64,000 bases of DNA from Escherichia coli (GTDB lineage: Bacteria; Pseudomonadota; Gammaproteobacteria; Enterobacterales; Enterobacteriaceae). The position numbers and the translations under genes are program-made. Of the stretch, positions 50,539-53,145 are shown in pieces (position 1 is the stretch's first letter; each line of letters opens with the position of its first letter). The stretch lies in NCBI RefSeq assembly GCF_044324875.1, contig NZ_CP172185.1; one strand, given 5' to 3'. Under the pieces are notes generated by a model that saw nothing but the letters and a program-made list of their open reading frames with translations, did not search any database and was not told where the DNA came from.

Positions 50539-51972
50539 CTAATTATTCTGATAAATATCTTTATACAAACGGCTTTCAAATCGCACTAACGGAATACGGC
50601 GATTACGCTGATCCGCCGGTTCTACTGCATAGCCGGAAAGATATTGTACAAACGCCATTCGTTGCCCGCTCGCCGTGGTAATGAATCCCGCCAGGTTATA
50701 TACCCCCTGCAACGAGCCGGTTTTCGCTGAGACTTTGCCATCCACGCCCGCCTGATGCAGACCTGCACGGTACTGCAAAGAGCCGTCATAGCCCGCCAGC
50801 GGTAGCATAGAGATAAAGTTAAGTTCATTGTCGTGTTGGGCAATGTATTGCAGCACCTGCATCATGGTGGCGGGGGCAATCAGGTTATGCCGCGAAAGCC
50901 CTGAACCATCGGCAATAATGGTGTTACCAATATCGACACCGGCTTGCTGGCGCAGGATCTGACGCACGGCGTCCGACCCGGCCCGCCATGTTCCAGGCAC
51001 ATTGAAGCGCGCATGGCCTATCATGCGGAAAACCGTATCGGCAATCATGTTGTCCGACTTTTTCAGCATAATCTTAAGCAGATCGTGCAGCGGGGCCGAC
51101 TGTTTACTGGCAACTACCGTTCCAGGTTCGTTAACCTGAGTCTGGCGTAGCAGTGTTCCGCTCCAGGTGATACCTGCCTGTTTTAACTCATCTTTCAGAA
51201 TTGCCCCAGCATAGCTGGCTCCATCCTGCACGGCAAAAGCCAACGGGAGCGGCTCAGAACGTTGTGGCAGGCATCCGGTCAGCGTAAAGCGGTTCAGGTC
51301 GCCTGGCACCACATCCAGCTCGCAATATTGCGCTTCGGCAGAACCACGGGGGAGGGTGCGTACCTGGCTGAACATCGTAACGGGGTAATAAGATGCCACG
51401 CGTATAAAAGCCATATCACCAGGTTTTGGGGCACTGTAGAGCGAGACGGAGAAACAGTTGCGGTCAACTATGGCGGCGGCAGGCGGAGCGCTAAAGCATT
51501 GTGTCATGTCATTCCATGGCCAGCCGGGGGCTTTATCGTGGCTGGCGAAAATGGAGGTATCTATCAACACATTGCCATCGATTTGGTTGACGCCAGATTT
51601 TTTCAAAGTCGCGACCATATTGCGAATATCCTGACGTTTTAACGTCGGATCGGCACCAAATCGCGCCACTAAGTCACCCTTAAGTACGCCGTTTTCCACA
51701 TTGCCTTTGGTTTCAAGCGTCGTGGTAAAACGAAAATCGGGGCCGAGTTGAATCAACGCCGCCAGCGCAGTAATCACTTTCTGGGTACTGGCGGGCAGCG
51801 CCATCTGCTGACTGTGGTAATCAATAGCGGGGGCCGACGCGCCGACTTTTTGCACCATCAGGGCAAGGTTGGCACCAGCGGGGAGTTGAGTAATGTACTC
51901 ATCAACATTTGCGGCCTGAACACTGAACGCTATACAGCTGGTCAATCCGATGATAAATCTGGAAAATCGCAT
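50539..51972 (-). CDS. dacB: D-alanyl-D-alanine carboxypeptidase/endopeptidase PBP4
   Basis: 477-aa ORF with signal peptide and STQK active-site motif. Confidence 0.95.
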   Translation of the reverse strand: MRFSRFIIGLTSCIAFSVQAANVDEYITQLPAGANLALMVQKVGASAPAIDYHSQQMALPASTQKVITALAALIQLGPDFRFTTTLETKGNVENGVLKGDLVARFGADPTLKRQDIRNMVATLKKSGVNQIDGNVLIDTSIFASHDKAPGWPWNDMTQCFSAPPAAAIVDRNCFSVSLYSAPKPGDMAFIRVASYYPVTMFSQVRTLPRGSAEAQYCELDVVPGDLNRFTLTGCLPQRSEPLPLAFAVQDGASYAGAILKDELKQAGITWSGTLLRQTQVNEPGTVVASKQSAPLHDLLKIMLKKSDNMIADTVFRMIGHARFNVPGTWRAGSDAVRQILRQQAGVDIGNTIIADGSGLSRHNLIAPATMMQVLQYIAQHDNELNFISMLPLAGYDGSLQYRAGLHQAGVDGKVSAKTGSLQGVYNLAGFITTASGQRMAFVQYLSGYAVEPADQRNRRIPLVRFESRLYKDIYQNN

Positions 51973-52048
51973 AATCTCGCGCTAACAACCTGGAATCGAG
52001 CCGTCATACTACGGCGCAACGCCCTATAAAGTAAACGATGACCCTTCG

Positions 52049-52125
52049 GGAACTTCAGGGTAAAATGACTATCAAAATGTGAATTGTAGCTGACCTGGGA
52101 CTTGTACCCGGGTCGGTATTTTTTT
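52049..52125 (+). promoter_or_regulatory. greA leader: sigma-E-type promoter followed by an intrinsic terminator (GraL-type leader RNA)
   Basis: GGAACTT, 16-bp spacer, TCAAA (52049-52076); then GACCTGGG...CCCGGGTC hairpin plus TTTTTTT (52092-52125) upstream of greA. Confidence 0.45.
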
Positions 52126-52219
52126 GCTTCTGGTCCCGGTGAGGAGTTATGCCGGGCAGGCCGAACAGCCGGGGTGGGTGAAGACTTGCCCCATCAGGAA
52201 TATTCAAGAGGTATAACAA

Positions 52220-52696
<477 letters not shown>

Positions 52697-52738: not shown

Positions 52739-52765
52739 GAAAAAGGCCGCTATGCGGCCTTTTAT
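52739..52765. terminator. Bidirectional terminator between greA and yhbY
   Basis: AAAAAGGCCGC-TATG-GCGGCCTTTT. Confidence 0.75.
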
Positions 52766-52851: not shown

Positions 52852-53145
52852 TTAGCGTGGCAGCGAGATTTTACGTTCTTTAGTTGGGCGATAAAGCACC
52901 AGCGTTTTACCGATGACCTGTACATTACAGGCGCCGGTTTCGCGCACGATAGCTTCCACGATCAAGGTTTTAGTTTCGCGATCTTCGGTGGCGATTTTCA
53001 CCTTGATGAGTTCATGGTGCTCTAACGCTTGTTCAATCTCGGCCAGCACCCCTTCGGTCAAACCATTACTGCCAAGCAGAACAACTGGCTTGAGCGGATG
53101 TGCCAGACCTTTCAGGTGCTGTTTTTGTTTAGTACTCAGATTCAT
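52852..53145 (-). CDS. yhbY: CRS1/YhbY-family RNA-binding protein
   Basis: 97-aa ORF MNLSTKQKQHLKGLAHPLKPVVLLGSNGLTEGVL... Confidence 0.93.
   Translation of the reverse strand: MNLSTKQKQHLKGLAHPLKPVVLLGSNGLTEGVLAEIEQALEHHELIKVKIATEDRETKTLIVEAIVRETGACNVQVIGKTLVLYRPTKERKISLPR

Follow-up and report, generated by a model that had tools for sequence, protein, structure and literature searches.

GreA is the main transcript-cleavage and fidelity factor of Escherichia coli, and it competes with GreB and DksA for the secondary channel of RNA polymerase, so that the GreA level has to be kept under tight control. The closest described system to the locus analysed here is the greA leader of E. coli K-12, which produces the small RNA GraL and is classified in Rfam as RF01769 (Potrykus et al. 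2010; Dylewski et al. 2019). In K-12, the transcripts meet an intrinsic terminator, made of an 11-bp stem with AU7GCU2 behind it, which stops about 66% of them in vivo and about 60% in vitro, and mutagenesis of the stem has been reported (PMC2836576). GraL and the greA leader are already known in detail from the literature of 2010-2019, and another E. coli genome adds nothing new; a search of the accessible literature found no mechanistic work on GraL later than 2019. The specialist interest lies in the unusually imprecise intrinsic terminator and in the released RNA, which may also act in trans. The leader is also a rare case of a regulated protein that raises termination in its own leader.

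Other described systems are more distant. The leader terminators of the greA/rnk family likewise stand 5' of Gre-family genes, where such terminators are widespread, whereas the leader sequences are unrelated (Naville & Gautheret 2010, PMC2965389). The Listeria SreA riboswitch, a 5'-UTR-derived sRNA to which the GraL authors refer, resembles GraL in that a leader terminator frees a short RNA with proposed cis and trans roles. In contrast to SreA, the GraL leader has neither a ligand-binding aptamer nor an antiterminator fold in its 18-nt 5' segment, and GreA raises termination. The sigma-E (RpoE) regulon promoters of E. coli and Salmonella are the reference for the second greA promoter, P2, which matches both elements perfectly with a 16-nt spacer. 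Unlike the sigma-E regulon promoters generally, greA P2 is superimposed on a strong sigma-70 promoter and has the -10 hexamer of the latter within its own spacer.

The greA leader locus and its two promoters

The window (the whole stretch of 64,000 nucleotides analysed) shares 99.17% identity with K-12 over 10 kb, and comes from an E. coli strain other than K-12. The 247-bp intergenic region lies between the divergent dacB and the downstream greA, which is the same gene order as in the K-12 annotation, and the greA product is annotated in E. coli genomes as transcription elongation factor GreA. The Rfam family RF01769 'Enterobacteria greA leader' matched positions 52003-52124 on the + strand with 127.5 bits (E = 3e-24). 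The match covers model positions 1-124 of 124, scores more than twice the gathering score of 60 bits, and lies on the same strand directly upstream of greA. The segment 51960-52140, which includes the promoters and the terminator, is 100% identical to K-12 MG1655. The only intergenic differences from MG1655 are at 52141 (G; A in K-12) and 52192 (C; T in K-12), and both of them fall in the read-through leader, downstream of the terminator and outside GraL. The region was found in 5425 of the 5426 complete E. coli genomes, with at least 99% identity in 5423 of the 5425 matching records.

These data show that the element is almost certainly the E. coli greA promoter and leader region producing GraL, and no observation speaks against this identification. 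The sequence-only reading had named a GraL-type greA leader, and this identity is supported by the RF01769 score together with the complete K-12 identity of the promoter-terminator segment. Sequence, gene context, the 11-bp stem and UAU7GCU2 are the same as in the described GraL locus of K-12, and the window differs from it by the two substitutions. The promoters, starts, termination, RNA release, in vivo 3' end, and GraL- and D41-dependent feedback have been shown in published work on the identical sequence. The promoter, start and termination data were mapped in K-12, and are expected to apply to the window strain on the basis of this identity. The coordinates are listed in Table 1.

Table 1. 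Features of the dacB-greA region, in positions of the window
Feature	Positions	Strand	Basis or remark
dacB	50539-51972	-	ORF list
P1 (sigma-70) -35, ATGACC	52038-52043	+	consensus scan; sigma-70 dependence PMC2836576
P2 (sigma-E) -35, GGAACTT	52049-52055	+	exact match
P1 -10, TAAAAT	52061-52066	+	consensus scan; inside the sigma-E spacer
P1 +1, A of AU	52071	+	K-12 mapping transferred by 100% identity
GraL small RNA	52071-52124	+	54 nt from P1, 43 nt from P2 (start 52082)
P2 -10, TCAAA	52072-52076	+	exact match
P2 +1, first A of AA (52082-52083)	52082	+	11 bp downstream of P1; ApA initiation
GraL intrinsic terminator hairpin	52089-52117	+	5' arm 52089-52099, loop 52100-52106, 3' arm 52107-52117
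U-rich tract A-U7-GCUU, imprecise termination zone	52118-52129	+	sequence; published 3' ends
Read-through part of greA 5' UTR	52130-52219	+	hairpin 52171-52192, Shine-Dalgarno AGAGG 52207-52211
greA coding sequence, 158 aa	52220-52696	+	ORF list; GreA annotation in E. coli genomes

Two promoters can be recognized in this region. The consensus scan identified P1 as ATGACC-N17-TAAAAT, which agrees with the sigma-70 consensus at 9 of 12 positions. The sigma-E elements GGAACTT and TCAAA are separated by a spacer of exactly 16 nt (52056-52071), and both elements with this spacing are kept at orthologous positions, as expected for a sigma-E-dependent promoter. The promoter GGAACTT-N16-TCAAA at 52049-52076 had been recognized by the sequence-only reading base for base, and the sigma-E dependence of P2 is published (PMC2836576); however, that reading overlooked the sigma-70 promoter P1, which overlaps P2. 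In K-12, P1 was described as sigma-70-dependent, and P2 was transcribed in vitro by the sigma-E holoenzyme (PMC2836576). GGAACTT has been named as the sigma-E -35 motif (PMC3326320). In Salmonella, a sigma-E ChIP-seq peak was located between dacB and greA, and replacement of the motif abolished binding (PMC4577112).

The starts could be placed by combining the published data with the sequence. Initiation in vitro used ApU at P1 and ApA at P2, with starts 11 bp apart (PMC2836576); the window has both motif pairs, together with AU at 52071-72 and AA at 52082-83, which are also 11 bp apart. Relative to P1, the published positions are +19 to +48 for the hairpin, +150 for the greA AUG, and +59 for a deletion point (PMC6829880). 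Counting from 52071, the stem start is reached at 52071 + 18 = 52089 and the ATG at 52071 + 149 = 52220. The assignment of +1 to 52071 for P1 and 52082 for P2 is the only one which fits all of the published coordinates and dinucleotides.

The contribution of sigma-E to greA expression is moderate in vivo. The lacZ fusions with P1 alone and with P1+P2 had nearly equivalent activity (PMC2836576), and induction of sigma-E gave only a moderate rise of expression in vivo (PMC6829880). Since P2 overlaps a strong sigma-70 promoter, sigma-E adds to a high basal level, and the induction by envelope stress is only moderate.

The exact 12-base sigma-E pattern has one occurrence in the 64-kb window. With one mismatch allowed, the shuffled windows contained 0.28 matches on average, and 27 of 100 shuffles had at least one match; the rarity of the motif alone is suggestive, short of decisive. 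The shuffles might be taken to favour the view that a sigma-E-like motif and a hairpin stand together here by chance and without function, as might the frequency of terminator-like sites, of which 2.6 were expected in the 1.9 kb scanned. However, the match is exact, its spacing to greA and that of the hairpin are the same in about 100 species of the Enterobacteriaceae, and it is backed by published experiments, so that the probability of chance co-occurrence is practically nil.

Two further blocks of the intergenic region, GTCATACTACGG (52003-14) and AAAGTAAACGATGACCC (52028-44), show almost no variation in the Enterobacteriaceae. The minus strand carries TTTACT (52035-52030)-N18-TAGTAT (52011-52006), with 8 of 12 matches to the sigma-70 consensus, about 27-35 nt upstream of the dacB ATG (51972). 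This pair may plausibly serve dacB as a divergent promoter; an equally good alternative is that the A-rich block acts as an UP element of greA P1. The dacB transcript was not detected by primer extension (Potrykus et al., PMC2836576).

Terminator hairpin and release of GraL

The hairpin was described in the sequence-only reading as imperfect, with the arms GACCTGGG at 52092-52099 and CCCGGGTC at 52107-52114. These arms are present at the positions given, whereas the full stem found by the terminator scan and ViennaRNA is longer: it has 11 bp, formed by GCUGACCUGGG (52089-52099) and CCCGGGUCGGU (52107-52117), with a 7-nt loop. The stem contains seven G-C, one A-U and three G.U pairs. The imperfection is the lone DNA mismatch, T52096 opposite G52110, which is a G.U pair in the RNA. 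TCAAA, whose distance from the hairpin had been estimated as about 10 bp, lies 12 bp before the full stem and 15 bp before the arm quoted earlier. The T7 run occupies 52119-52125, between A52118 and GCTT at 52126-52129, and its last T is exactly 95 nt from the greA ATG, in line with the earlier estimate of about 95 bp.

The predicted stability of the hairpin is high. The minimum free energy was -19.6 to -21.4 kcal/mol, compared with -9.3 to -10.6 kcal/mol for the shuffles (z = -4.3 to -4.7), and none of 200 dinucleotide shuffles folded as well. The stable G+C-rich hairpin, the adjoining U-tract, and the pairing kept in relatives are the characters of an intrinsic terminator, and the 11-bp stem and AU7GCU2 agree with the published description (PMC2836576). 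A terminator on the opposite strand was considered and rejected: the minus strand has its A-run ahead of the hairpin, and this region holds the start of dacB and not its end, so the element is unidirectional.

The released RNA has been characterized in K-12. The published lengths of GraL are 49-59 nt from P1 and 37-47 nt from P2 (PMC6829880), which place the 3' ends at about 52118-52129 of the window. The 3' ends are scattered over about 10 nt within UAU7GCU2, each with an uncertainty of +/-2 nt; the RNAs are physically released from the transcription complex, and in vitro they are Gre-insensitive (PMC2836576). Northern blots showed GraL clusters of about 55 and 45 nt, and the native single-copy GraL was barely detectable (PMC2836576). 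The K-12 Term-seq data (Adams et al. 2021, PMC7815308, supplementary files 1 and 3) place a minus-strand 3' end at 3328811, which lies 96 nt before the greA ATG and was covered by about 65,000 and 61,000 reads in two conditions. Aligned via the ATG, this end corresponds to window position 52124, the sixth T of the T7 run. The absence of transcript 3' ends from 52119-52125 had been set as the observation that would speak against the terminated leader; the dominant K-12 end falls inside this interval. The comparison with the published greA leader and GraL coordinates, which had also been suggested as a check, showed agreement for the hairpin, the starts, the ATG and the 3' ends.

The unusually wide spread of the 3' ends might also be explained by Rho-dependent termination, or by nuclease processing of a longer transcript, and a conditional role of Rho was left possible by the authors of the 2019 study (PMC6829880). 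However, purified RNA polymerase gives the same ladder, with release of the RNAs, and mutations in rnc and rne leave the GraL pattern unchanged (PMC2836576). At the Term-seq site, the Rho score is 0.67 ('No'), and the site is located outside the significant Rho regions; its intrinsic-terminator score is 5.2, with a threshold of 3.0 (PMC7815308). Formation of the ends by Rho or by nucleases is accordingly highly improbable, and intrinsic termination is the reading preferred here.

The released RNA could have a function of its own. The element might exist chiefly to produce GraL, a small RNA acting in trans, and the attenuation of greA might be a by-product. Overproduction of GraL improved competitive fitness while a scrambled version did not, and more than 100 genes changed in expression (PMC2836576); PMC6829880 relays nudE as a proposed target, together with a report of about 40 synthetic-lethal partners. 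The high conservation of the stem sequence, beyond its pairing, points in the same direction. However, the 2010 work validated no direct target of GraL, and the low abundance of the native single-copy RNA noted above also speaks against this reading. Autoregulation by GreA did not need Hfq, and the cis role of GraL in the GreA feedback was directly shown (PMC6829880). The trans and cis roles are compatible, and the authors used the term dual-action RNA. A primary trans function is somewhat doubtful on this evidence; the trans role, with the fitness gain and the nudE candidate, has been proposed and is less firmly established than the cis role.

GreA feedback and the antiterminator question

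The mechanism of the element can be outlined as follows. Two overlapping promoters, the sigma-70 P1 and the sigma-E P2, start transcription at 52071 and 52082, so that no more than 18 nt of unstructured RNA from P1, or 7 nt from P2, precede the hairpin. The 11-bp G+C-rich hairpin at 52089-52117, with UAU7GCUU, then causes Rho-independent termination. About two thirds of the transcripts are released as GraL RNAs of 37-59 nt, with the dominant 3' end at 52124; about one third read through into greA mRNA, whose 5' UTR measures about 150 nt. The terminator thus acts as a constitutive 'valve', which keeps greA expression well below the promoter strength. A negative feedback is placed on top of it: more active GreA leads to more GraL and less read-through, and this feedback needs the GraL sequence in cis and the RNA-cleavage residue D41 of GreA.

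The feedback has been studied in K-12 (PMC6829880). Deletion of greA derepressed the leader fusion about 3-fold and made GraL about 4-fold lower, and the GreA D41A variant could not restore the repression. Replacement of the promoter kept the GreA regulation, whereas scrambling of GraL or swapping of the stem arms largely abolished it, and the sequence past +59 was dispensable. Nus factors, Hfq and sigma-E induction had no part in the autoregulation. The enhancement of termination was seen in vivo with catalytically active GreA, and it was not reproduced in vitro. The failure in the purified system suggests that an accessory factor or an indirect route is presumably involved. The regulated read-through that had been postulated from the sequence stands in part: GreA-dependent enhancement of termination occurs in vivo; however, the termination efficiency is constant through growth (PMC2836576), and the GreA effect is absent in vitro.

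Regulated read-through could also be provided by a classical attenuator or riboswitch, in which an upstream antiterminator in the 5' two thirds of RF01769 (52003-52070) competes with the terminator and is switched by a signal. A 'clear antiterminator structure' was reported for greA leaders (Naville & Gautheret 2010, PMC2965389), the RF01769 consensus has four helices upstream of the terminator, and 52003-52106 folded as RNA sequesters the 5' arm of the terminator at -18.6 kcal/mol. However, these helices span 52003-52073, and three of them are wholly upstream of both starts; the fourth overlaps the P1 transcript by its last three bases. The 15 upstream pairs showed no compensatory changes among 77 distinct sequences, and the variation only breaks pairs, one of them in 52 of the 77 sequences. 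In the P1 transcript, the best fold avoiding the terminator has -3.9 kcal/mol, compared with -21.4 kcal/mol for the fold with the terminator, and the 36 nt transcribed ahead of the 3' arm fold at only -0.2 kcal/mol. Moreover, the known effector, GreA, raises termination instead of relieving it (PMC6829880).

Neither an alternative fold in the transcript, by constrained folding of the P1 transcript, nor covariation in the 77 sequences was found for an attenuator, and this reading is very unlikely. The greA leader is a fixed terminator, not a two-state switch. The absence of covariation, together with the location of the helices before the mapped starts, suggests that the upstream blocks are conserved as promoter DNA and not as RNA structure. 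The 5' part of RF01769 (about 70 positions, about 68 nt upstream of +1) appears to include promoter DNA. The upstream extension of the family probably derives from attenuator candidates, which were defined between the upstream gene boundary and the terminator (PMC2965389).

Conservation in relatives and the read-through leader

The greA leaders of related species were collected using the first 11 greA codons as the anchor, with free wobble positions and one genome per species; the leader itself was not used in the selection. The set contains 107 loci from about 25 genera of the Enterobacteriaceae, plus two from Aliagarivorans. Of the 107 loci, 103 have the sigma-E motif with no more than one mismatch, about 150-180 nt upstream of the ATG, and the spacer is 16 nt in all of the motif-bearing loci but one (17 nt). 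Within the -35 element, GAACT is invariant across species, with the variants TGAACTT and GGAACTC. The P1 hexamers are as well conserved: GATGACCC is near-invariant in 77 distinct sequences, and TAAAAT is found in nearly all.

Across 88 distinct sequences, 98.7% of the terminator stem is paired; in comparison, shifting the 3' partner by 1-3 columns lowers this value to 24-56%. Three stem pairs have changes on both sides, and the top pair occurs as G-C (42 sequences), A-U (26) and G.U (16). The covariation of the stem is modest: the stem is mostly sequence-invariant, the changes are largely from G.U to A-U or G-C, and free variation is confined to the top pair. Since the stem is mostly invariant, its conservation supports a constrained sequence as much as a structure. 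The invariant stem sequence fits the published need for the GraL sequence, beyond its shape, in the GreA feedback. The bottom G.U pair is kept in 80 of the 88 sequences, and the A following the stem is not conserved, with most genera having UUUUCUUUUGCUU; both features were also remarked in PMC2836576. All aligned species have the U-rich tract, in the form TTTTCTTTTGCTT or ATTTTTTTGCTT.

Some divergent leaders differ from this pattern. Two loci of divergent Enterobacteriaceae (L087 and L094) have lost the sigma-E -10 and kept P1 and the hairpin with its U-tract; their stem sequence, compared by eye, is altered to GGUUUGGGG...CUCCGAACC. In the same set of loci (L087, L094, L023 and L085), the Aliagarivorans greA leaders have a hairpin followed by T8 as the E. 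coli leader has a hairpin and T-run; whereas the hairpin is unrelated and the sigma-E motif is absent. In this small sample, the leader terminator looks more widely retained than the sigma-E input.

The read-through part of the 5' UTR contains a further conserved hairpin. It is formed at 52171-52192 by GGGGUGGGU-GAAG-ACUUGCCCC, and RNAalifold analysis of 59 species revealed compensatory changes in four of the six predicted pairs. The C at 52192, which is T in K-12, changes the closing G.U pair of this hairpin to G-C. Just downstream is the near-invariant ribosome-binding region ACAGGAAUGUUYAAGAGGUAUAAC, and ACAGGAATGTTYAAGAGGTATAAC before the greA ATG is near-invariant. Another hairpin preceding it, at about 52132-52158 (CUGGUCCCGG...CCGGGCAG), was seen in individual sequences, is species-variable and was left unscored; it was not recovered by RNAalifold on the read-through leader, which at this place is too variable for the MAFFT alignment. 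No description of either hairpin was found in the two GraL papers (PMC2836576, PMC6829880). The 2019 deletion downstream of +59 (PMC6829880) indicates that both are unneeded for the GreA feedback. The segment 52130-52219, outside GraL and RF01769, may carry a second regulatory layer that acts on the stability, processing or translation of greA mRNA, although this is unlikely. The primer-extension bands 'P3/P4', which the 2010 authors judged in their account of them to be likely post-transcriptional (PMC2836576), could conceivably be related to the read-through hairpins.

Three small open reading frames in the leader were rejected. A leader peptide of ATG-TGA at 52077-52082 would be present in P1 transcripts only and lacks a Shine-Dalgarno sequence, and other genera have ATCAAATTGAAAA at this place; it was treated as a chance occurrence. 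The start, frame and length of a 10-codon ORF at 52149-52181 (MPGRPNSRGG) are not conserved in Salmonella, Citrobacter and Kluyvera, and it was rejected as probably spurious. In K-12, the A at 52141 creates TAAGGAG just ahead of the ATG at 52149. A 50-aa ORF with a TTG start at 52102-52254 overlaps greA out of frame and is unsupported.

Downstream of greA, a perfect 10-bp palindromic hairpin, AAAAGGCCGC-TAT-GCGGCCTTTT, is located at 52741-52763, with A-runs and T-runs on its flanks. It lies between the convergent greA (end 52696) and yhbY (minus strand, 52852-53145), and looks like a bidirectional intrinsic terminator. Sub-threshold Rfam matches to the terminator part of STnc540 were obtained on both strands, and the K-12 Term-seq 3' end at 3328197 (+) bears the same hairpin sequence.
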